DNA of 64,000 nucleotides from Spirochaetia bacterium (GTDB taxonomy: Bacteria; Spirochaetota; Spirochaetia; CADAEX01), in the NCBI GenBank assembly GCA_963662265.2, contig CAXXHA010000032.1, forward strand, positions 112,144 to 176,143, read 5' to 3'. Position numbers and translations under genes: made by a program. Positions 39,074-50,844 of this stretch are shown in pieces (the stretch's first letter is position 1; the number at the start of each line of letters is the position of its first letter). Under the pieces are notes generated by a model that saw only the letters and a program-made list of their open reading frames with translations, made no database searches and was not told where the DNA came from.

Positions 39074-39332
39074 TATTTTAACCTCCCCCCTGTTTCAGGG
39101 TTTTGCTGTTAATGCCATTATAGCATGGTTTCCCTGTACAAAGGGCAAACCATAGAAAAACAACCGGAAAATAAAAAAGTTACTCACTTTTTTATTCAGT
39201 CATTAAAAAAATCACATATCTTCATTCATTTTACAAAAGTATAATAAATATACAGATATAATTCTATTCATTATTGTAATAAGTGAGGGCTCCAGGTTTT
39301 CAGAGGTTAGATAGATATAAAATTGCAGCTAA

Positions 39333-40295
39333 TCAATATTTAAATTCATATATATTACGATCAACAATGTTTATCAACTGTTTTCCTTCAATATATGCTT
39401 TAATGTTTTGTTCAATAATAGAAAGAGTTTTATTTAATGTGTGAGGAAGAAAATCATGCCCTGCAATATGAGGAGTTATTATTATGTTTTTAGTATTCCA
39501 TATTTTATGGTTACGAGGAAGAGGTTCATTTTCAAAAACATCTAATGCTGCTCCTGATATTTTATTGTTTTCAATCGCTTCACATAAAGCATTAATATCG
39601 AGAGTATTACCGCGGCCTACATTTATCAATACAGCATCCTGTTTAATTCTGGAAATCATTTCTTTATCCATAATATTTATTGTCTCTGGAGAAGACGGTA
39701 AAGACATGGAAACAATATCAGCACGATGTATAATTTTTGCCAAATCATTGAAAGAATACATCTCATCCGCATATTTATTGTTTTTATTAATAGACCTTCT
39801 AACACCAATAATGTGTACACCAAAAGCTTTAAGCATTTTTGCATACTGAGTTCCAATATCTCCCATGCCAAGTATCAAAACAGTAGCATCCTGAAGCATT
39901 TTTTCGTTGCCTTCATCATTCCATAAACAATTATTCTGGTTGTCCCTGTAAATATTCAGTTTTTTATACAGAGATAAAGTTAAAGCTAACATAAACTCTG
40001 ACTGGGCTTCCCCATAAGCACCGCTTGCATTAGTAACAATAACACTATCTTTCAGAATATTATCCTTAAGATATGCATCAGCGCCTGCAGTAATCAGTTG
40101 GATCCATTTCAGCTTTTCTGCGTGCTCCAATAATTCTAAAGGTGGATTCCCAATTATTATTTTCGAATTTGATATTTGATCGTGGTTTATATTGCAATCT
40201 GATGCAAACTCAAAATCTATATATTTTTCAAACTGAGAAAGCTTATTTTTCTGGGAAAGATCAAGAGGAATAATAACAAGAACTTTGGTTTTCAT
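39333..40295 (-). CDS. D-2-hydroxyacid dehydrogenase family
   Basis: TAGAD, TNASG, GMGDIG, INVGRG, LDVFENEPLP, ITPHIAG. Confidence 0.92.
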   Translation of the reverse strand: MKTKVLVIIPLDLSQKNKLSQFEKYIDFEFASDCNINHDQISNSKIIIGNPPLELLEHAEKLKWIQLITAGADAYLKDNILKDSVIVTNASGAYGEAQSEFMLALTLSLYKKLNIYRDNQNNCLWNDEGNEKMLQDATVLILGMGDIGTQYAKMLKAFGVHIIGVRRSINKNNKYADEMYSFNDLAKIIHRADIVSMSLPSSPETINIMDKEMISRIKQDAVLINVGRGNTLDINALCEAIENNKISGAALDVFENEPLPRNHKIWNTKNIIITPHIAGHDFLPHTLNKTLSIIEQNIKAYIEGKQLINIVDRNIYEFKY

Positions 40296-40343
40296 AACAA
40301 TCCTATGCAATATTTAATATTATTTCACATTAAAAATACTTAT

Positions 40344-41192
40344 CTACAATCCCAGATAATAACCTTTGTTAAGAAAATCTTCCATTTCCTTAAGTGTATC
40401 AATTGCTCTGGAATGATCAAGCTGTGCTATTGCTGCAGAAATATAATTTATCAGACACATGGGAGCAACATAGGAATTTTTGAATGAAATGCCGCCGACA
40501 CTGCATGGTAAAATGATATCACCGTAATTTTCTATATCTGAAATATTCTGACTTGTAAACAGAATAACCTTAACATTTCTTTTTCTTAGCCATAATATTA
40601 AATTTGCGGTTGTTTTCGAGTATCTTGGAAATAAAAAAGCTACACAAATATCCTGTTCATTACAGCCGATCAATTCTTCAGGAAAGATCATTCCGACAGA
40701 CTGTACTAACCTTACATTGGGTCTTATCTGACCAAGACGGGAGGTCATATAATGAGCTAAGGCAAAAGAACTTCTCATACCAAGAACATAAACATTTCTT
40801 GCATTACTTACTTCATCAATAGTAACAGATAAATCTTTTTGAGATATTTTTGTCATTGTAGTTGTAATATCGGCTATATCATTCTGCATAGTATCCATAA
40901 GTAACTGGTCAGGTGTCCCTGTTTCGATTTTGTTAATCAATCTCTCTGGCAGACTTGCTTTTGTAACCAGTCCTTTCTGGACCTCCTTCTGCATATCGGA
41001 ATAGCCATTATATCCCATCATTCTTGCAAAACGGATAATCGTAGTCGTACTTACACCGATTTTCATTGCAACATCATCTAGAGTGGAAAAGGCAAATTTA
41101 TCTGGATTATCAATAAAATAATTAGCTACTGTTTTTTGTGAATACGTAAGATCATTAAACCGCTCTGCAACTTTATTTGAAAAATCAGACAT
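40344..41192 (-). CDS. MurR/RpiR family regulator (HTH + SIS)
   Basis: LTYSQKTVANY, GVSTTTIIRFARMMGYNGYSDMQ, GMRSSF, FPRYS. Confidence 0.93.
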   Translation of the reverse strand: MSDFSNKVAERFNDLTYSQKTVANYFIDNPDKFAFSTLDDVAMKIGVSTTTIIRFARMMGYNGYSDMQKEVQKGLVTKASLPERLINKIETGTPDQLLMDTMQNDIADITTTMTKISQKDLSVTIDEVSNARNVYVLGMRSSFALAHYMTSRLGQIRPNVRLVQSVGMIFPEELIGCNEQDICVAFLFPRYSKTTANLILWLRKRNVKVILFTSQNISDIENYGDIILPCSVGGISFKNSYVAPMCLINYISAAIAQLDHSRAIDTLKEMEDFLNKGYYLGL

Positions 41193-41219
41193 TTTCTTCC
41201 CCTGCTTTAAACCATTTTT

Positions 41220-41258
41220 AAAAGTATGTATAAATAAGTTATTATTTATACATACTTT
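41220..41258. terminator. AT-rich hairpin between the enolase-like gene and rpiR
   Basis: aaagtatgtataaataa-gtta-ttatttatacatacttt perfect inverted repeat. Confidence 0.5.
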
Positions 41259-41292
41259 ATCAATATTTTCTTCAGTTAGCTACTAAATTATT

Positions 41293-42564
41293 TTAAAATC
41301 TTACAATACTGCTAATATCTGTCATCTGACAACCGGGGGTTTCATCACATGCTCTCATCAGAAAATTAAGTTTATCTATCCTCTCTCCCGACCGAGGTGC
41401 TCCATTCTTCTGAAAAGCAACTTCAAGACCGACAGAAATATCCATTACAATATCACCGACAACTCCTCCTGACCTTCCTGAAGGAACTGTAAACATATTG
41501 TGTTCATTTGCAATTTTATGTGTTTCAAGAGCCTCTGTTATAGTACCGACCTGATTTGGTTTCAGGACAAATCCTTCAGCTGCATTAGTTTCTATTGCCC
41601 TATAAAGCCTTTCTTTGTTGGATGCTATAAGATCATCACCAATAATAATTGTTCTTTCAAGTTCTCTAACAGCCTTAGTATAATTTCCCCAATCATTTTC
41701 ATCCAGAAGATCTTCTATAAAAACTATAGGGAACTGTTCTGTCAGTTTTTTTGTATAGTCAATTATTGTCTGGGCTCCAACCCTTTCATCCTTAAGCAGA
41801 TATGTGTTTGTTTTTGCATCATACATTTCACTTGAAGCACAATCAAGAGCAAATGCCACTTTATCATGATACCCGCATTCATCAACTGCATCCTGCATTA
41901 ATTGCAATGCAATTACAGGATCATTTGTTGGAGTTGCCCAGCCATAAGATCGGGCAACCTGAGGTGTTTTCCCCATATATTTTTCAATTATTACCCCAAG
42001 TTTACTAAAAACCTTTACAGCTATTTCAACAGCTTCATATATAGTATCAGCTTTATAGGGGACAATAAGGAATTCGTTAAAAGCAAGGGTAACATCCCCA
42101 TATTTACCGCCATTTATAACATTAAAAGATGGAACTGGAACTGTCCTGATATCTCTTCCGCAGAGATATCTATAAGGAGTCATTTTTGAAATCTGAGAAG
42201 CTGCTCTAAGTGCAGCTATAGAAGTACTGCAGATAGCATTTCCCCCAAGCACGCTTTTATCAGAGGTACCATCCAGTTCAATCATTTTTCTGTCAAGAGC
42301 TTCCTGGTCCTGAATATCCATACCTATCAATGCAGGAGCAATAATTTTCTTCACATTTTCAACTGCTTTATGAACACTTAAACCATCATACTCAGAAGGA
42401 TTATTATCTCTCAGGACAAATGATTCATATTTCCCGACAGAACTCCCTGTCGGAGAACTTCCATAACCCTTAAATCCATTTTCTGTAGTAATATCAACTT
42501 CAACCATAGGACGGCATTTACAATCTATTATCTGCCTCGCTGTTACATTTTTAATCTTTTCCAA
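41293..42564 (-). CDS. Divergent enolase paralogue (lacks the catalytic acid Glu)
   Basis: Full-length enolase fold: DCASSE, IED, GDD, LKPNQVG, GRS; but GDEGG is replaced by ARSYG, NGGxH by NGGKY, and SHRSGET by SGRSGGV. Confidence 0.88.
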   Translation of the reverse strand: MEKIKNVTARQIIDCKCRPMVEVDITTENGFKGYGSSPTGSSVGKYESFVLRDNNPSEYDGLSVHKAVENVKKIIAPALIGMDIQDQEALDRKMIELDGTSDKSVLGGNAICSTSIAALRAASQISKMTPYRYLCGRDIRTVPVPSFNVINGGKYGDVTLAFNEFLIVPYKADTIYEAVEIAVKVFSKLGVIIEKYMGKTPQVARSYGWATPTNDPVIALQLMQDAVDECGYHDKVAFALDCASSEMYDAKTNTYLLKDERVGAQTIIDYTKKLTEQFPIVFIEDLLDENDWGNYTKAVRELERTIIIGDDLIASNKERLYRAIETNAAEGFVLKPNQVGTITEALETHKIANEHNMFTVPSGRSGGVVGDIVMDISVGLEVAFQKNGAPRSGERIDKLNFLMRACDETPGCQMTDISSIVRF

Positions 42565-42585
42565 TCTATCACTCTCCTACTTAAT

Positions 42586-43987
42586 TTATTTTTCAGGTAC
42601 ATACATTATGTTAAAATCACAGAGGTTTGTTCCTGTATTCCCTGTGAAAACAGTATCTTCAAGTTCTACCAATGCTTCATAACAGGAATGCCCCCTGAGT
42701 GATGCATGTATATCAACATTTTTTTCCAAAGCTGTTTTATAAGTTGTTGAATCAGTTATTCCTCCAGCTATATCAGCTGTTCCATCAGTACCTTCAGAAT
42801 CTATAGATAAAAGGCATGCACCTTCTGTTTTTGCAGCTAAAAGGGCAAAACTCAAAGTTTCTTCCTGTCCCCGGCCCGCCATGGCCTTTAATGGTATTGT
42901 TATCCAGAATCTTTGTAGTTGCCTCACCTGATGAAAGAATTACACAGGGAGCCTTAACAGGATTTCCATATTCCTGTATTTCCCTTGCAATAGATGCAAA
43001 TATTGTACCTACATCCCTGGCTTCTCCCTCCAGAAATGAGGTAAGAATTACAGCATTAATACCCATATCCTCTGCAATATGTTTTGCATATATACATGAA
43101 TCAGGAAGTGTATTCAGAAGGTAATATGTGTTATCAGGGAATGCTTTTGGAGTTTCCCCTTCAGGACCAGCATTCATAAGGTAATCAACAACATTTTTAG
43201 GAAGCCTGTCAGCCACATCATAATCACGGATAACAGCTCTTGCATCATCAAGAGTAGTCATATCAGGCCCCATAGGTGTACTTTTATATGCTGCATATGG
43301 AATTCCAATATCGCCTGTTGCTGCAGATCCTACAGCATCACTTATCCCGAACCCTATCAGTTCAGCACCTCGTTTCTGTATCCTTTTAGCAAGCATTCCC
43401 CCGTTAAACTGGGATATATGTCTTCTTATGGAATTTATTTCATAAATATTGGCACCTGACTTAAGCATTACATCAGTCACTGCAATTTCATCATCCAGAG
43501 ATATTCCATCTATAGGACAGCTCATCAGGGCAGAACTGCCTCCGCTTATAACAACAATAAAAAGGTCATCAGGTCCTGAATTATCCACTATTTCAAGTAT
43601 TTTTTTGCAGGCATTATAGCCAGCTTCATTGGGAAGGGGATGCCCCCCCACATAAACTTCTGTTTTATTAAAAACATCTGTTTCTTCTGCGATTTTTACA
43701 ATAGCAATACCACGGGTAAGCTTATCCCCAAGAATCTCATCTACTGCCATTGCCATATGGTTACAGGCTTTCCCCGCACCCAGAAGATATATATTTTTCT
43801 TTTTTGAAAGGTCCCAGCTTTTTGTACCTATATGGAGAATATCTCCATCCAGATGCATGATGCTTTTAATCCTTTCTTTAGAATCAAGTTTCTGAAGCGT
43901 TTTTTCAGTAATGTCCAGTACTATCTCCCTGGATTTTTTATCTCCATGTGATAATATCTGTTCTCTGTTGCGTATTTTGACCGACAT
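42586..43987 (-). CDS. MOFRL/DUF4147 glycerate 2-kinase family; +1 frameshift near 42870 (probable sequencing error)
   Basis: GAGKA, GHPLP, ISGGSSAL, GEAT..GHGGPG|QE..DSEGTDG..AGG..TGNTGTNLCD. The two ORFs join if one G is removed from ccgggg. Confidence 0.85.
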
Positions 43988-44101
43988 TTCAAACTCCTTC
44001 GGTTTATTTATCATGTTTTGTATATATTACTATATGTTGCAGTATTAACTACTTTGATATAAAACATATTAACTATACTTCTATATCATACTATGGTTAT
44101 T

Positions 44102-45397
44102 TTACGTTTCTGACAGTTCAGGCAAGCTCTTCTGAGACTGCGGATAAAATAGAATCTTCGGATTGTCCTTAGCAGACAAATCTACCGCTTTATTAATCAT
44201 ATCATTAACATTTTCAGCCGGAATCATGTGCAGTTTTTCTATTTCAGATTTTGAAATATTGGGAGAATATACAACTATATTAACATTTTTCTTAAGTATC
44301 TTTGAAAGCAATAATGAATGGTCCATTTGGATCCTGTAATTATCTTTCAGATAATCAATAACCCCCTCAAGAGAAGGAGACTGTTCAAATGGCTTCATCA
44401 TATCTGGTGAATTTATCCCCTCCCGACATTCACAGTAAAGAGCAACTGTAATTGAATCATCGAGTATATCTGTAAGTGCTATAAGAGCCTTTACTGACTG
44501 ATAAAAATCAATATTAAGAGGACTACCAGGTGTTGTTACAATGATATCAGGTTTCTTGAAACTGTTCTTGCAATACTTTCTAAGATAATTCACCGCTGTC
44601 TTATGTGATAAAAGCATTGGCCCTGAAAAAACTGCGGCTGTCTGGTTAACAGAATTCTGAACAAAATTAACACAAAAGTCGAGACGGAAAAACTCTGCTG
44701 TTTCTATCATGTCATTACTTACAGGATTTCCCTCCAGACAACCAGGTACGGCCTTTTCCGAAGAAATCATTTTAACTGAATGATTTGTAAGAATAGTTTT
44801 TTCAGAAGAAATTCCAGGCAATACAGATTTTCTACCTCCTGAAAAACCTGCGAATTCATGCGGTTCCACTTTTCCAATTGAAACATGGATATCACATTCA
44901 TAAGCCCTTTTGTTAACCTCAACAGGAGTACCAAATGAGGTTATACCCAGGTTTATCAGATTACTGCTATCAAAAGGGGTATGGTTTTCTATTCTCATCT
45001 TGGAATAAAGTTCCGGCCCGATTATTTTCAGCATTTCCTCTTCTGTTGCCTCCCTGTGGACACCAAGAGCAACAATAAAAAGTATATCTGACAATGTTAT
45101 TCCACCGTCTGTCAACTCCTTTACTATTATTTCAGCAGCGCTTTGTGTCGGTACATTTCTGGTTGCATCTGAGACAATTATACATGCACTTTTTGCATTA
45201 CGTTCAAGTACAATATCCTTAAGCCGCTTCCCCCCCAGAGGGTTATAAATACTGTTTAAAAATTCCTTTTCATTTATTGCAGTAATATCGCTATTTCCTG
45301 TTACCCCTGCAAAACATACTTCAGGAATTTCTATTGAGATTTTTTCCACTTCATCCTTATAATGAACTTTGTTATCAGCAATAGAAATAGAATACAT
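44102..45397 (-). CDS. LarA-family nickel-pincer-dependent alpha-hydroxyacid racemase/epimerase
   Basis: SDATR, ALGVHR, PHEFAGFSGGRKS, NH and FYQSVK motifs. Confidence 0.9.
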   Translation of the reverse strand: MYSISIADNKVHYKDEVEKISIEIPEVCFAGVTGNSDITAINEKEFLNSIYNPLGGKRLKDIVLERNAKSACIIVSDATRNVPTQSAAEIIVKELTDGGITLSDILFIVALGVHREATEEEMLKIIGPELYSKMRIENHTPFDSSNLINLGITSFGTPVEVNKRAYECDIHVSIGKVEPHEFAGFSGGRKSVLPGISSEKTILTNHSVKMISSEKAVPGCLEGNPVSNDMIETAEFFRLDFCVNFVQNSVNQTAAVFSGPMLLSHKTAVNYLRKYCKNSFKKPDIIVTTPGSPLNIDFYQSVKALIALTDILDDSITVALYCECREGINSPDMMKPFEQSPSLEGVIDYLKDNYRIQMDHSLLLSKILKKNVNIVVYSPNISKSEIEKLHMIPAENVNDMINKAVDLSAKDNPKILFYPQSQKSLPELSET

Positions 45398-45425
45398 TCT
45401 CTAAATACCTCAATATCCTGTTCTA

Positions 45426-45460
45426 AAAATGTGCTCTGATAAATCAGAGCACATTTTTTT
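45426..45460. terminator. Intrinsic terminator/hairpin between dctQ and the larA-like gene
   Basis: aaaaatgtgctctgat-aa-atcagagcacattttt. Confidence 0.6.
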
Positions 45461-45474
45461 AATTATAGTATCTG

Positions 45475-46023
45475 CTAAACATCCTCAGTAATAAGACCGG
45501 TATCTTCAATTTCATGATCAGATATACCAACAACGGCGGCTTCTTCGCCAGGTCTGAATAAATCAAAGAGAATATTTCTCAATTCATACAAAGACATCAC
45601 AGCAAAAGAAACAGAAACTGCAGCATATTTTACAGCATAAGGAAATCCCAGAGCGGGAGTTACCCTGCTACCTGATCTGATTATCATAAGTATACCGATG
45701 TAAAAAACAACAACAGATGCCAGAAACATGATAATCTGAACACTGATGTTCATTATATGTTCCACTTTTTTGGGGAACATCTGCTTGAATACAACTATGC
45801 TTACATGTTCTCTACGAACAGCAATATAGGAGGCGCTCAAGAGACAAAACCATACCAGCAGTATTTTTAACAATTCTTCTGACCAGGTCAGCGAACTGTT
45901 TAATACATAACGGCTGAATATATGGAGCAGAGCAATTGCCAGCATACATATTCCTATAGCTATTATCATAATCATAACTATTCTGCCTGTCTTTCTAACA
46001 ACATTATTAAGAGTGTCTAACAT
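45475..46023 (-). CDS. dctQ: TRAP transporter small permease
   Basis: SRYVLNSSLTWSEEL, HVSI, TPALG; 4 TM segments. Confidence 0.92.
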   Translation of the reverse strand: MLDTLNNVVRKTGRIVMIMIIAIGICMLAIALLHIFSRYVLNSSLTWSEELLKILLVWFCLLSASYIAVRREHVSIVVFKQMFPKKVEHIMNISVQIIMFLASVVVFYIGILMIIRSGSRVTPALGFPYAVKYAAVSVSFAVMSLYELRNILFDLFRPGEEAAVVGISDHEIEDTGLITEDV

Positions 46024-46046
46024 AATACTCCTTCCCGATTATTTAA

Positions 46047-47123
46047 TTATTTTACACTTTTAGCTGTGTCTGCTTTTACAGCTTCAATCCCTGCGATGAA
46101 TTCATCTACAAATTCACTTCCAATTTCTTCTTTAACCTTATCAGAAACAACTGGCTGAGAAACTTTTTTTATAGCTTCAAGATTTGCCAGTGTCAAAGAA
46201 TTGACCTTCATACCTTTATTGGTGAGCTGTTCTACAATAAGTGCTTCCCTGTTCGCATTGATAAAACGGCTGTAATTCTGTCCGAGAATTGCACCTTTTT
46301 CAATGATTTTCTGATATTCTCCTGGAAGAGAGTTAAACCATTTAAGATTTGTCACAAGTGGCATAGCATCATAAATATGGTTGGTAAGAGATACATAATC
46401 CTGAACTTCATACATGTTTACTTCCCATATATTTGCAAGAGGATTTTCCTGTCCATCTACAATTTTCTGTGACATTGACAAATAAAGTTCAGACCAGGGA
46501 ACAGGTGTCGGATTTGCTCCGAGTGCAGAAAAATTTGCCATGTGCATTGGAGCTTCCATTGTTCTTATTTTAAGTCCTTTAAAATCATCTATTGACTTGA
46601 TAGGTCTTACATTATTTGTCGCATGCCGAAAACCATTTTCCATATAAGCAAGACCTTTTAAACCTGATTCTTCGAGTGTATCCATCAGATCTGAACCTAC
46701 TTTACTGTCAAAAGTAGCCCACGCCTGCTGGTAGTTATCAAAAAGAAAGGGAATATCAAGTACTGCAAATTTTTTATCAAAAGTTGTAATAGGTCCGATT
46801 GATGCAGTAGCCATTTCAAGAGTACCATTCTGAACCTGTTCAACTGATTCGATTTCAGCTCCCAGCTGGCTGTTGGGATAAATTTTGACCTCAACCTTTC
46901 CATCTGTTTTGTCTTCAATATATTCTTTCATAACACCCAGTCCTAGAGTCTGCGGGTGATCAAGAGAATTGCAAGCAGAAATTCTGATTTCAAAGGATCC
47001 AAGATCTTCAGCAGATCCTGCTTCTGCTTTTTTAGAATTTCCACCGCATGCTATTATTGAACACATAACAAGCAGCACCATTATCACCTTAAGTGATTTC
47101 ATAATAAAGTTTTGTTTTTTCAT
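46047..47123 (-). CDS. dctP: TRAP transporter substrate-binding lipoprotein
   Basis: Lipobox IIAC; YPNSQLG, ENGFRH, KGLKIRT (carboxylate-binding Arg), LGANPTP, VDGQENP. Confidence 0.94.
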   Translation of the reverse strand: MKKQNFIMKSLKVIMVLLVMCSIIACGGNSKKAEAGSAEDLGSFEIRISACNSLDHPQTLGLGVMKEYIEDKTDGKVEVKIYPNSQLGAEIESVEQVQNGTLEMATASIGPITTFDKKFAVLDIPFLFDNYQQAWATFDSKVGSDLMDTLEESGLKGLAYMENGFRHATNNVRPIKSIDDFKGLKIRTMEAPMHMANFSALGANPTPVPWSELYLSMSQKIVDGQENPLANIWEVNMYEVQDYVSLTNHIYDAMPLVTNLKWFNSLPGEYQKIIEKGAILGQNYSRFINANREALIVEQLTNKGMKVNSLTLANLEAIKKVSQPVVSDKVKEEIGSEFVDEFIAGIEAVKADTAKSVK

Positions 47124-47146
47124 TAGGTAATTCTCCTTTTTTTTTA

Positions 47147-48421
47147 TTAATAACCCATCATTTTTGGCAGAAACAGACTTATTTCTGGAACAAAAGTAAC
47201 GAGTAACAAAACACTAAAAGTTGTCAAGATAAACGGGATTGCCTCTTTGACAGTATCTTCGACCCTGACATTAGCAATAGGACTTGTAACGAACAATGTA
47301 ATTCCGAATGGAGGAGTTGCAAGTCCAACTACAAGATTGACACATATAACTACTGCAATGTGCAGCGGATGAATACCAAGCTTCCAGGCAATAGGAGCAA
47401 TTATGGGAGCAAGTATTACAATAGATGCATAATCATCCATAAAACATCCTGTTATCAGGAGAAGAATATTTACCATTAAAAGGAACATCCATGGGGGTAT
47501 TGAAGACAATGGCTCAATTACATAAGAGAGAACCTGCTCATTTGCAATTGCCCAGGCCATAACACTTCCGGCACCAGCTAGAAGGAGCACAAGACCCGAT
47601 GTTAAGGCGGCTTCCTTGAATATTTCAGGAATATCTTTAAGCTTAACAGACTTATTTACAAAGAAACCAAGAAATGCACTATATAAAACAGCCACTGCAG
47701 AGGCCTCTGTAATACTGAAGACTCCACCGAATATCCCACCAAGAATTATTACAGGAAGCATCAGTGCAGGAAGAGCTTTTTTTGCAGCAACAATTTTTTC
47801 TTTTAATGAAGTTTTAGGGAAAGAGGGATAATCTCTTTTTTTGGATACAAAGTGTGCAACAAGTATCTGCCCAAAAGCTATCATTATTGCAGGGACAATT
47901 GCAGTCAGAAAAACACCAGCTATTGAGGTATTACCAACAGCAATACAGTAAAGAATCATCAACACACTAGGAGGCATAATCGGACCTAAAAGTGATGCAG
48001 AAGCCATTACTCCTGATGCAAAAGCTGGGTTATATCCTTCTTTTTTCATCATCGGAATAAGAAAAACACCAAGAGATGCAGCAGCAGCAACAGCCAGACC
48101 AACAATTGATCCCATGAGTAAACTTGCCCCTATTGTCACAATTGCAACAGCACCTTTTGCCCTTCCAAAAAATACATTGACAAAATCAATAAGATTTTCT
48201 AACAGCTGCCCTTTAAGCATCAACTGCCCGGTTATTACAAAAAATGGAACTGCCAGAAAAGAAAAACTACTCATCCCCTCATACATTTTCTGACCTACAA
48301 GCATAATATCAAATCCGCTTGCTATCATGTAAACAAGAGAACTACTGATCAAGTTATAAGCTATTGGCAATCCACAGATCATAAGTACAAAGAAACATAT
48401 GATCATCAATAATAATTCCAT
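47147..48421 (-). CDS. dctM: TRAP transporter large permease
   Basis: FLAVPFF, IMPPS, GGVFSITEASA, GLATPPFG. Confidence 0.94.
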   Translation of the reverse strand: MELLLMIICFFVLMICGLPIAYNLISSSLVYMIASGFDIMLVGQKMYEGMSSFSFLAVPFFVITGQLMLKGQLLENLIDFVNVFFGRAKGAVAIVTIGASLLMGSIVGLAVAAAASLGVFLIPMMKKEGYNPAFASGVMASASLLGPIMPPSVLMILYCIAVGNTSIAGVFLTAIVPAIMIAFGQILVAHFVSKKRDYPSFPKTSLKEKIVAAKKALPALMLPVIILGGIFGGVFSITEASAVAVLYSAFLGFFVNKSVKLKDIPEIFKEAALTSGLVLLLAGAGSVMAWAIANEQVLSYVIEPLSSIPPWMFLLMVNILLLITGCFMDDYASIVILAPIIAPIAWKLGIHPLHIAVVICVNLVVGLATPPFGITLFVTSPIANVRVEDTVKEAIPFILTTFSVLLLVTFVPEISLFLPKMMGY

Positions 48422-48498
48422 AAAAAACCTTCCCCCCTTTCTAAGATTAGTTTTACCCTACCCCTGCTTTACATCAGTAAAACAGTCAATATAAATTT

Positions 48499-49632
48499 CT
48501 ATTTCCAGAATGCTTCTTCCCAGAGCAGGAGCTTCTGTCCTATTCCCTTTTCCAAAGCTTTTTTGTATATATCATAACCCCAGGCCACATCAAAAACTGC
48601 CATTCCACAGGCAACAAAAATTATTGTCTCATCATCGGAATTTCTGCCTTCTTTCTCTTTATTAACAATATCACCAAGCCCTGTAGACTCTTTGAGTGGG
48701 GGCAGTTTTCCATCATCAATAAGTGTATATATTGGTCCGCCTATGACTCCGCTGTAATACCCGGCTTTATCACCAGAAGCAACTGCTTCTTCAACATATG
48801 CCTCATGAAGAGGAACATGATCATATACAATTTTGCTTTCTTTCCACAGAGAATCATTTCCTTTTGCAGGTCCTGATAACAGGATAGTGCTTCCTTTTTT
48901 TACCCATGAAGAATCAATATGAAGAGGTTTCAGCCTTGAAGCAGCAACAGTCACAACATCCCCTTCTCTAACAGCTTCTTCTGCTGTTTCAACTGTATAA
49001 CCTTCTATTCCATATTCTTCTCTTGCCCAGTCAACCAGGTTCTGTGCCTTTTCCTGAAAGAGATCGAAACAAACAATTTTTTTTACATTATCAAGCTGAG
49101 ATAAAACAGCTCTTGTGCATGATTTATTTATAGGACCACATCCGATAACTGAACAGACTTCAGATTTTTTTCTAACAAGATGTCGTGTTGCAACGCCAGG
49201 AACTGCTCCTGTCCGCATAGCACTAATCAGGTTTGCTGACATGAAACTCAAAGGCTCTCCTGTATCCTTGTCATTCAAAAGTACAGTAAGAACTGAACGG
49301 GGCAACCCTTTTTCAGGATTTGCGGCATTTGATCCATACCATTTCACTCCGCATACATCAAACCTTCCTCCAAGATAGGCAGGCATTGCAACAAAACGTC
49401 TGTCAGGACCGGCTACCGGCATATTTGGAAATATTGTTTCTTTTGGAAAAACAAGCCCCATTCCATGACTGTTGTGATTACTTCCACCCATCAGATAATC
49501 ACCTTTACCAAGCAATGAAAATGTTTCTTCAGCTACATCTACACAGCTTTCCATTTCCAGTGCACCAGCCTCAATCATGTCTTTTTCAGAAAGATATAAA
49601 AAATCAGTTTTTTTTCCACCCATTTCCTTCAT
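48499..49632 (-). CDS. OCD/mu-crystallin family protein ('tyramine oxidase subunit B'-like)
   Basis: FLYLSEKDMI, NSHG..FP..FPNMPVAGPDRRFVAMPAYLGGRF..GVKWYGSN..GLPRS, ANLISAMRTGAVPG. Confidence 0.85.
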   Translation of the reverse strand: MKEMGGKKTDFLYLSEKDMIEAGALEMESCVDVAEETFSLLGKGDYLMGGSNHNSHGMGLVFPKETIFPNMPVAGPDRRFVAMPAYLGGRFDVCGVKWYGSNAANPEKGLPRSVLTVLLNDKDTGEPLSFMSANLISAMRTGAVPGVATRHLVRKKSEVCSVIGCGPINKSCTRAVLSQLDNVKKIVCFDLFQEKAQNLVDWAREEYGIEGYTVETAEEAVREGDVVTVAASRLKPLHIDSSWVKKGSTILLSGPAKGNDSLWKESKIVYDHVPLHEAYVEEAVASGDKAGYYSGVIGGPIYTLIDDGKLPPLKESTGLGDIVNKEKEGRNSDDETIIFVACGMAVFDVAWGYDIYKKALEKGIGQKLLLWEEAFWK

Positions 49633-49884
49633 TTACTCCTTGTATAAAACTTCCAAAAACAGTTATTAGTTCTGATAGCAAACTTTTTTAACTAGCATTA
49701 TAAATATTTTAAAAGGTGTGTTTTATATAATACAAAAAGTATATATCACTACATTTCAGATGTCAAGAAAATCTTTCATTGATAATAAAGGAAAAAAATC
49801 TTCATTTTTATTTGAAACTGTATTATAAAAAGTCTATATTATTGATTCTATTATTTACTTAAGCTGTACAGGGGAATTAACCTT

Positions 49885-50844
49885 ATGATAAATAATTTTT
49901 CGATACTGACTGACTCCCTAAAATCAACATACAAAGTATGTTTGACACTTTTCAGGATAATTATCCCGGTCAGTATTCTTATGAAATTAATTACAGAATT
50001 GGGTCTGATAACACATATAGGAGAACTGCTGTCTCCCCTAATGTCGCTTGCAGGACTTCCGGGAAGTTACGGCCTTGTATGGGCTGCCGGAATCTGTACA
50101 AACATCTATGCAGCAATGCTTGTATTCTCAAAAGTCATATTGAATAATCCTGTAAACACTGCTCAAGTTTCTGTTCTCGGGATCATGCTTCTTGTTGCCC
50201 ATGCACTTCCCATAGAGGCAACTGTTGCCAGAAAAGCCGGTATAAAACTGAGGATCTCCCTGATATTCAGACTGGCATCTGCTCTGCTGTTCGGAATCAT
50301 ACTCAACCTGATATTTGAGACAACAGGACTTTTTCAGGGCTCCCCCAATATTATCTGGTATCCGAAAAACAACGAAACAGGCTATATCGCATGGGCAGTC
50401 AGGGAAATTCTTAATTATGTGAAAATAACAGGTATTATTTTCACTCTCATTACCCTTATGAACATACTGAAAGCCACAGGAGTCATGAATGTTCTCATAC
50501 GCCTGCTCCACCCGGTGCTGAAGGGACTCGGAATCGGTAAAAAAGCAATACCGATAACAATAATAGGGATTGTACTGGGTTATGCATATGGAGGAGGACT
50601 TATTATTGCCGAGGCCAATTCAGGTAGAGTCGGAAAAAAAGACCTTTTCTACACAATAATATTCCTTTCCCTCTGTCACAGCCTGATAGAAGACAGCCTG
50701 CTGCTGATTTCTCTGGGTGCTGATGCTGTTATTGTCTTTCTCGGCAGGTTTATTTTTTCATACATTACCTGCACATTAATTGTCCTGGCAACAAGAAACA
50801 TGAATGAGGAAAAATTTAAAAAACTGTTCTTCAGACCTCTTTAG
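49885..50844 (+). CDS. Nucleoside-recognition (gate) domain membrane protein
   Basis: PLMSLAGLPG, AHALPIE, YGGGLII, LCHSLIED. Confidence 0.78.
   Translation: MINNFSILTDSLKSTYKVCLTLFRIIIPVSILMKLITELGLITHIGELLSPLMSLAGLPGSYGLVWAAGICTNIYAAMLVFSKVILNNPVNTAQVSVLGIMLLVAHALPIEATVARKAGIKLRISLIFRLASALLFGIILNLIFETTGLFQGSPNIIWYPKNNETGYIAWAVREILNYVKITGIIFTLITLMNILKATGVMNVLIRLLHPVLKGLGIGKKAIPITIIGIVLGYAYGGGLIIAEANSGRVGKKDLFYTIIFLSLCHSLIEDSLLLISLGADAVIVFLGRFIFSYITCTLIVLATRNMNEEKFKKLFFRPL

Follow-up and report, generated by a model that had tools for sequence, protein, structure and literature searches.

An enolase-like protein lacking the dehydrating residues of enolase is paired with a glycerate-2-kinase-type enzyme and is a proposed lyase on a 2-phospho acid

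Enolase is usually regarded as a single-function subgroup of its superfamily. Here we describe ENO2, an enolase-like protein of 423 residues encoded as an open frame with a TTG start at positions 41293..42564 (minus strand) of a 64,000-nucleotide stretch of Spirochaetia bacterium DNA (GenBank assembly GCA_963662265.2, contig CAXXHA010000032.1, positions 112,144 to 176,143 of the forward strand; this whole stretch is called the window below). ENO2 belongs to a conserved family that keeps the metal, base and phosphate sites of enolase and has replaced its general acid and catalytic histidines; it is paired with, or fused to, a kinase of the glycerate-2-kinase class, and in the window the pair lies within an island. 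We propose that ENO2 is a beta-eliminating lyase acting on a 2-phospho acid. That it forms the lyase half of a kinase-lyase module, with a substrate other than 2-phospho-D-glycerate (2-PG), is in our judgement an evenly balanced proposition. ENO2 represents either a new reaction in the enolase subgroup or a catalytically re-engineered enolase.

Results

The ENO2 active site

ENO2 matches the Pfam domains Enolase_N (142 bits) and Enolase_C (216 bits) and scores 367.4 bits on TIGR01060, above the curated cut-off of 300. Residue-by-residue alignment with the solved enolases 2pa6 and 1iyx (best match 2pa6, E 3.3e-84) gave an identity of 36–39%; against the canonical enolase of its own genome the value is 38%. 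An AlphaFold2 model built from 13 family sequences has a mean pLDDT of 87, with only the flap at residues 44–60 poorly defined, and Foldseek superposes it on 2pa6 with a TM score of 0.91 (E 1.6e-44). The protein shows the pattern of the enolase superfamily, with acidic metal ligands at the barrel end and a lysine base on the barrel.

ENO2 has the same fold as enolase (EC 4.2.1.11) and shares a large part of its active site. With the yeast enolase equivalents in brackets, the metal ligands Asp241, Glu284 and Asp310 (Asp246, Glu295 and Asp320) are kept, as are the flap serine Ser42 (Ser39), Glu164 (Glu168), the lysine base Lys335 (Lys345), and the phosphate- and carboxylate-binding residues Arg364-Ser365 (Arg374-Ser375) and Lys386 (Lys396). 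In enolase, Glu211 and His373 drive out hydroxide. Unlike enolase, ENO2 has Arg205-Ser206 in place of Asp-Glu211 at the general-acid site, followed by Tyr207 in place of Gly212; both catalytic histidines are replaced (His159 by Tyr155, His373 by Gly363), and the Glu-Thr that follows SHRSG in enolase has become Gly367-Val368. The original prediction, a reading of the ENO2 sequence that preceded this analysis, had held that the base, metal and phosphate sites were retained and that the general-acid Glu, the loop His and the His of SHRS were lost. The alignments bear out every retained residue named there, and the three losses appear as Ser206, Tyr155 and Gly363. Two further changes were absent from that account: the N-terminal DSRGNP reads DCKCRP, so that the SRG motif of enolase is CKC in ENO2, and Gln167 is replaced by Asn163. 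We considered a metal site formed by three cysteines and set it aside, since the canonical representative P0135 shares the cysteine beside the metal ligand. By fold, model score and metal, base and phosphate residues ENO2 is thus an enolase-family member; since it lacks Glu211, His373 and His159, we do not file it as a phosphopyruvate hydratase.

Distribution, conservation and phylogeny of the family

A word-indexed search for relatives of ENO2 returned proteins of 62–100% identity among the best 120 listed; where the source names them, they are called 'enolase' or 'phosphopyruvate hydratase', and in the Protein Atlas the homologue P0060 falls only among clusters named enolase. Two family-specific peptide patterns, run on species-representative genomes, gave 286 stretches, of which 275 were confirmed; the locus counts below rest on the best 80 of these 275 confirmed loci. 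Carriers are found in Clostridia of many families, Planctomycetota, Desulfovibrionaceae, Holophagae and Thermoleophilia, and further in Treponema, Synergistaceae, Collinsella, Bifidobacterium and Paenibacillus; cultured carriers include Wukongibacter baidiensis, Faecalicatena contorta and Paenibacillus rhizosphaerae. L005 and L006 are two contigs of one metagenome-assembled genome (MAG), and their ENO2 copies share 99.5% identity; on the first, ENO2 is accompanied by just the kinase, and on the second it belongs to a pyrimidine-type operon.

To describe conservation we combined the window protein, 119 database relatives of at least 400 residues and the proteins of the 80 loci which, less one duplicate, gave 199 distinct sequences. 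Lys335, Glu164, Asp241, Glu284, Asp310, Arg364 and Lys386 each occur in all 199, Ser42 in 193 and Ser365 in 156. The replacements are equally fixed, with Gly363 and Gly367 in 199 of 199 and Ser206 in 198. The remaining rebuilt positions vary within limits: position 155 is Tyr in 161 sequences, Asn in 37 and Asp in one, position 207 is Tyr (183) or Phe (16), position 209 is Trp (119) or Tyr (80), and position 205 may be Arg, Gly, Pro, Ser or His. The first hairpin holds a set of new, near-invariant residues, namely Cys15 (193/195), Lys16 (191/195), Cys17 (195/195) and Arg18 (195/195). The copy in the window carries all of the family-invariant residues. Set against 99 canonical representatives, which we defined among 142 representatives by a complete Glu211/His373/His159 triad, the family has 57 positions conserved alike and only 11 that are conserved but different. 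This residue pattern is not due to chance.

Decay of an old enolase copy would have left relaxed selection, as the original prediction had recognised. By the Nei-Gojobori method, dN/dS ranged from 0.015 to 0.099 for the 40 most similar of 244 pairs, each of at least 80% identity. Because these ratios are low and the catalytic residues are invariant, the family is not decaying; selection on it is strongly purifying.

In a single FastTree run on the 142 representatives (50% clustering level, midpoint rooting), ENO2 falls in a clade of 16 with support of 0.976, inside a looser group of 25. Neither the clade nor the group has any member with the canonical Glu/His/His triad. The members of the clade all keep the metal, base and phosphate residues, and the C3 site varies among them. 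Some sister lineages bear an N-terminal His_Phos_1 (phosphoglycerate-mutase-like) domain: P0126, P0130, P0131 and P0151, of about 615 residues, fuse His_Phos_1 to an enolase-like domain without Glu211 and His373. A metagenome scan with P0126 returned almost only canonical enolases, at 34–39% identity, and no sister-clade context. In a Lachnospiraceae contig (L164:8987-12992, on G091:C1), one kinase gene is followed by two different tandem enolase-like genes and then by an RpiR regulator. The tandem products share 54% and 49% identity with ENO2, and at the rebuilt sites position 206 is Tyr or Ser and position 363 is Gln; they may form a heteromer or represent a further specificity variant.

The kinase partner

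Upstream of ENO2, on the minus strand at 42586..44014, lies a gene whose product, KIN, matches DUF4147 and MOFRL, the domains of class II glycerate 2-kinases. In the window it is read as two overlapping open reading frames (ORFs), 42794-44014 and 42586-42927, owing to one extra base at 42869 within a run of G. The two pieces, taken in their two frames, are 75–77% identical to the intact kinases of three other loci (L009, L016 and L042). Contigs from four public sequencing runs, drawn from two samples in two studies and possibly including the window's own source, all lack the base at 42869. Because those contigs restore a single frame, the frameshift is probably an assembly error rather than the mark of a pseudogene. 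KIN is homologous to the solved proteins PH0495 (256.8 bits) and TM1585 (219.1 bits). The only glycerate 2-kinase equivalog models that match are archaeal; the intact kinase of L076 reaches 193.2 bits where 550 is the cut-off, and the window pieces score 142.9 and 43.1, a shortfall that does not decide specificity.

The association of the two proteins is close to absolute. In 27 of the 80 loci kinase and ENO2 form one fused ORF of about 895 residues, with the order DUF4147-MOFRL-Enolase_N-Enolase_C confirmed by Pfam; in 51 they are separate genes on the same strand within 300 bases. The kinase is therefore directly upstream or fused in all 78 loci that could be assessed, the remaining two ending at a contig edge, and a homology search with the window's neighbours found it in 78–79 of the 80. 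Since nature has fused the two proteins, we take their steps to be consecutive.

Canonical enolase in the same genomes

The genome of the window has a second enolase on another contig (G000:C8), which scores 723.4 bits on TIGR01060, so that ENO2 is indeed a paralogue, as had been predicted. The same holds more widely: a canonical enolase was present in 11 of 13 ENO2-bearing genomes examined, counting the window's own, G005, G006, G008, G009, G051-G054, G091 and G188, with the gene of G053 in two adjacent pieces. All three ENO2-bearing genomes in a sample of 151 Lachnospiraceae genomes (G058-G207, requested at a completeness of at least 95%) also have a canonical enolase. Given this coexistence, a product that an ordinary enolase could use would not need ENO2.

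Gene neighbourhoods

ORFs in the loci were called mechanically and some of the resulting clusters are shadow ORFs, so partners were counted from homology matches. Among the 80 loci we found OCD/mu-crystallin family enzymes in 57, RpiR regulators in 45, TRAP transporters in 35–36, LarA homologues in 26, glutamate dehydrogenase in 18 and YgeY-type M20 hydrolases in 14. The 52 loci of at least 15 kb gave 42 with OCD, 34 with RpiR, 25 with TRAP, 21 with LarA, 18 with glutamate dehydrogenase, 11 with M20, six with a 2-hydroxyacid dehydrogenase of either of two types, six with a Na:alanine symporter and three with a nitrilase-type amidase. By its substrate-binding motifs we take the dehydrogenase of these loci to be a genuine glutamate dehydrogenase, and one YgeY-type hydrolase exceeds the cut-off of NF009555. 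Transporters of amino-acid type include AGCS proteins in six loci, together with APC, polar-amino-acid ABC and DUF3100 types.

Four loci link the pair to ureide or pyrimidine genes. In L006 a co-directional run reads NCS1 permease, PreT, PreA, dihydropyrimidinase, KIN, ENO2 and RpiR, with a YgeY-type hydrolase and an OCD gene transcribed divergently from it; extending this locus past its edge added a TRAP system and two URO-D-family genes, and no further ring-opening enzyme. L053 carries PreA/PreT genes, L007 a carbamoyltransferase, a carbamate kinase and a YgfK-like reductase, and L045 an Amidohydro_3 amidohydrolase with a YgeY-type hydrolase. Reductive pyrimidine breakdown yields 2-substituted beta-alanines when it starts from a 5-substituted pyrimidine, not serine or glycerate. 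URO-D-family genes, of the uroporphyrinogen decarboxylase family that includes corrinoid methyltransferases, adjoin two ENO2 loci (L163:222-2734; L007:12287-13405).

In anaerobic urate breakdown, YgeY and UacY/YgeW convert diureidopropionate to 2,3-diaminopropionate by stripping off its ureido groups, according to two preprints (10.1101/2025.05.19.654654; 10.1101/2025.04.24.650524). We considered whether the ENO2 module is a simple substitute for the diaminopropionate ammonia-lyase YgeX, and rejected this since YgeX-like genes occur in several ENO2-bearing genomes. The genome of the window itself has a YgeX-like gene in two adjacent pieces (G000:C1:186702-187848; 308.5 and 275.9 bits), which may reflect a second frameshift like that in KIN and hints at a urate/diaminopropionate pathway in this organism.

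The island in the window

ENO2 and KIN belong to a nine-gene cluster, entirely on the minus strand, within an island of 10.7 kb at approximately 39194..49948. In the same-genus genomes G010 and G011 the island is missing and its flanks run on with only about 160 and 260 bases between them. A search of 40 relatives gave no ENO2 orthologue, the best matches reaching at most 39% identity. We therefore regard the island as one acquired unit. Its G+C content is 0.345–0.384, against about 0.39–0.41 across most of the remaining window.

Downstream of ENO2 lie an RpiR-family regulator with HTH_6 and SIS domains (40344..41192, minus strand) and a D-isomer-specific 2-hydroxyacid dehydrogenase (39333..40310, minus), both assigned by domain and model matches. 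On the other side, beyond KIN, a LarA homologue of the nickel-pincer 2-hydroxyacid racemase/epimerase family (44102..45397, minus) matches Lar_N and LarA_C; its best NCBIfam models are those for malate racemase (311.6 bits; cut-off 500) and lactate racemase (292.9 bits; cut-off 460), and its closest solved relative is Mar2 (6d6z). Domain matches identify the next three genes, all on the minus strand, as the TRAP components DctQ (45475-46023), DctP (46047-47123) and DctM (47147-48421). The closest solved relative of the TRAP binding protein, 4P47, is ligand-free (PMC11668362) and hence gives no substrate clue. The last gene encodes an OCD/mu-crystallin family enzyme (48499..49632, minus) that scores 450.6 bits on NF004848, against a cut-off of 362. 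Its closest solved relatives are SbnB and an archaeal alanine dehydrogenase, and we propose that it strips the alpha-amino group from the substrate in an NAD-dependent reaction.

Between dctQ and larA, a palindromic hairpin with a perfect 15-bp stem and A5/T5 flanks (45425..45458) may act as a bidirectional terminator or as an attenuator, and could divide the island into two transcription units. The region's best candidate sigma-70-like promoter, an 11/12 match to the consensus, lies upstream of the OCD gene at 49738..49766 on the minus strand; promoter-like sites as a class are no commoner here than in shuffled sequence (38 versus 43.8 ± 6.7).

Discussion

A proposed kinase-lyase module

To our knowledge, MOFRL kinases are known only as glycerate 2-kinases, and KIN would therefore supply a 2-phospho acid, phosphorylating the 2-hydroxyl of a small 3-substituted 2-hydroxy acid. 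ENO2 would hold this product as enolase holds 2-PG: two Mg ions and Lys386 would engage its carboxylate, and Arg364 and Ser365 its phosphate. Lys335 would then take the C2 proton, the C3 substituent would leave, and phosphoenolpyruvate (PEP) would result. Glu211 and His373 are gone and the rebuilt positions carry no conserved ionisable residue, so a group that can leave unprotonated is the probable one. The conservation of the family, its pairing and fusion with the kinase, the island structure and the residue pattern are observed directly; which step comes first, that PEP is formed and which group leaves are what we infer.

Our favoured substrate, put forward tentatively and as possible rather than probable, is 2-phospho-isoserine, which would yield PEP and NH4+. 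Isoserine could be taken up directly or released from ureido or acyl precursors. Another source might be 2,3-diaminopropionate, which the OCD-family enzyme and a 2-hydroxyacid dehydrogenase would convert to isoserine in a redox-neutral sequence. The LarA homologue would provide the right enantiomer, the glycerate-kinase relative would phosphorylate it, and its ammonium would leave without help from an acid. The OCD relatives, glutamate dehydrogenase, M20 hydrolases and amino-acid transporters of the loci, together with the four ureide and pyrimidine loci, favour a nitrogen leaving group. The side chains at 207 and 209, which are aromatic and do not ionise, would be compatible with ammonium.

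A mechanistic counterpart is methylaspartate ammonia-lyase, in which a lysine base forms a Mg-stabilised enolate and ammonium is lost without a general acid. ENO2 may work likewise, and the resemblance we propose is one of mechanism only. The two belong to different subgroups, and the methylaspartate ammonia-lyase domain, PF07476, is not among the Pfam matches of ENO2. The substrate of that enzyme also differs in having no phosphate, and its amino group leaves the carbon next to a second carboxylate. For enolase homologues that work on analogues of 2-phospho acids there is precedent in PhpG and PhpH, homologues of phosphoglycerate mutase and enolase from phosphinothricin biosynthesis in actinomycetes, in which the leaving group is hydroxide. 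This likeness is one of description, and the pairing of mutase and enolase resembles the His_Phos_1 fusions of the sister clade.

Several observations weigh against this proposal. The invariant Cys15, Lys16, Cys17 and Arg18 could supply an acid after all, or bind an anionic group, and our picture of the C3 pocket, like the roomier pocket of the original prediction, is drawn from sequence alone. We do not know isoserine as an abundant nutrient. The pyrimidine or ureide link is limited to four of the 80 loci, and a YgeX-type diaminopropionate ammonia-lyase coexists with ENO2 in several genomes. The closest ligand-bound relatives of the TRAP binding protein hold hydroxy acids, erythronate and pantoate among them (PMC11668362), and LarA-group enzymes with high glycerate racemase activity exist (PMC11770544). 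Finally, the neighbourhood can be read equally well with known activities, as a route from serine or hydroxypyruvate through D-glycerate and 2-PG to PEP.

Alternative readings

That last point leads to the main rival reading, in our estimate rather doubtful, that ENO2 is a true 2-PG enolase serving such a route, with Glu164, water or one of the new invariant residues standing in for Glu211. ENO2 scores above the curated enolase cut-off, and the D-2-hydroxyacid dehydrogenase, the MOFRL kinase and the LarA homologue all have counterparts in a glycerate pathway. The lower branch of the serine cycle is composed of hydroxypyruvate reductase, a MOFRL glycerate 2-kinase and the housekeeping enolase, and the same three families stand side by side in the window as dehydrogenase, kinase and enolase-family protein. 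The island differs in that its enolase is a dedicated and catalytically altered paralogue, accompanied by OCD, LarA and a transporter; unlike enolase, ENO2 is always a neighbour or fusion partner of the kinase and belongs to regulated catabolic islands. Glu211 and His373 have given way to other residues in 198–199 of 199 sequences, positions 155, 205 and 207 hold no conserved ionisable residue, a second, kinase-linked enolase would be redundant beside the canonical one in 11 of 13 genomes, and L006 ties the pair to pyrimidine-ring reduction, which yields no glycerate. Support for a true enolase also comes from two Treponema MAGs, G007 and G050 (loci L042 and L044), which have PGK and iPGM with ENO2 as the sole enolase homologue detected, while two other genomes of that genus carry the canonical enolase only. 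In this genus, however, the canonical gene sits on small contigs and may simply be unbinned in G007 and G050, and 19 of the 151 Lachnospiraceae genomes likewise had nothing of the enolase family with an E value of 1e-60 or lower, gaps that reflect either the limits of the search or truly enolase-less lineages. Because absence calls are weak for both reasons, we weigh the Treponema pattern lightly.

The remaining alternatives change the substrate or the chemistry. The same module might act on a 2-hydroxy acid of four or more carbons, such as 3-hydroxyaspartate, tartrate, 2,3-dihydroxybutyrate or a tetronate, giving a substituted phosphoenol acid whose extra group would lie in the enlarged C3 pocket. 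Bulky catalytic residues have indeed become Gly and Ser, and Gln167 has become Asn; the LarA homologue is nearest to malate racemases, Lys16 and Arg18 could bind a second carboxylate, and the erythronate- and pantoate-binding TRAP proteins (PMC11668362) fit as well. We think it improbable, since a hydroxyl leaving group would still require an acid, the 80 loci show no recurrent decarboxylase or other enzyme for dealing with a substituted phosphoenol acid, and the AGCS-type transporters of six loci fit small neutral amino acids. A sulfur leaving group would escape the demand for an acid, since sulfite and thiolate leave without one. Phosphorylated sulfolactate (from the breakdown of cysteate or sulfoquinovose) or 3-mercaptolactate would give PEP and sulfite or sulfide, formally the reverse of phosphosulfolactate synthase. 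That enzyme, ComA, interconverts PEP and a 3-substituted 2-phospho-propanoate; it has an unrelated fold and works in the direction of addition, in coenzyme M synthesis, where adding sulfite to PEP is the favoured direction, a point that counts against this reading. The OCD-family enzyme and the dehydrogenase could turn cysteate or cysteine into the hydroxy acid, Desulfovibrionaceae and Synergistaceae are among the carriers of the family, and TRAP systems for sulfonates exist (PMC11668362). Yet a scan of roughly 170 neighbour proteins turned up neither a sulfite exporter nor a sulfite reductase, nor any other gene for sulfonates, and the accessory genes (glutamate dehydrogenase, M20, carbamoyltransferase) are of nitrogen type, so that we hold a sulfur substrate to be distinctly improbable. 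Least credible, and in our view very improbable, is that ENO2 racemises or epimerises a 2-phospho acid at C2, or is a non-catalytic or decaying enolase copy, as the retention of the C2-enolising base without the leaving-group machinery might suggest. Decay is excluded by a dN/dS of 0.015–0.10 together with the invariant catalytic residues. A racemase would call for another conserved base on the opposite face, and none is evident; LarA already offers racemisation at the level of the hydroxy acid in 26 of 80 loci, and a kinase whose phospho acid led nowhere would waste ATP. The original prediction had offered a different leaving group and C2 epimerisation side by side; the constant pairing and fusion with the kinase strengthens the former, whereas the single base and the presence of LarA make the latter less likely.

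Implications

We found no description of the ENO2 family or of the kinase-enolase fusion in the full-text literature, most subscription-journal papers and preprint supplements lying outside its reach. As the boldest form of our proposal, which we advance with reserve, ENO2 would be the first non-hydratase of the enolase subgroup, a lyase that forms PEP by removing ammonia from 2-phospho-isoserine or by expelling some other group that leaves without an acid. If so, 2-substituted beta-alanines or beta-substituted alanines, arising for example from reductive purine or pyrimidine breakdown, would reach PEP by a new route through a 2-kinase, an OCD step and a nickel-pincer racemase, and ENO2 would mark a single branch within a wider and unexplored clade of enolase-like enzymes that are 'acid-less', a few of whose lineages carry phosphoglycerate-mutase-like fusions.

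The ENO2 clade is conserved and found in many phyla, common gut Clostridia included; of the enolase active site it preserves the half that enolises and has dropped the half that dehydrates. Should ENO2 prove to be a true enolase, it would carry out enolase chemistry without Glu211 and His373, which would surprise enzymologists too. If the reaction is new, it would add a reaction type to the enolase subgroup, correct an enolase annotation, and give anaerobes an ATP-neutral way to form PEP from a small nitrogenous or otherwise substituted acid.

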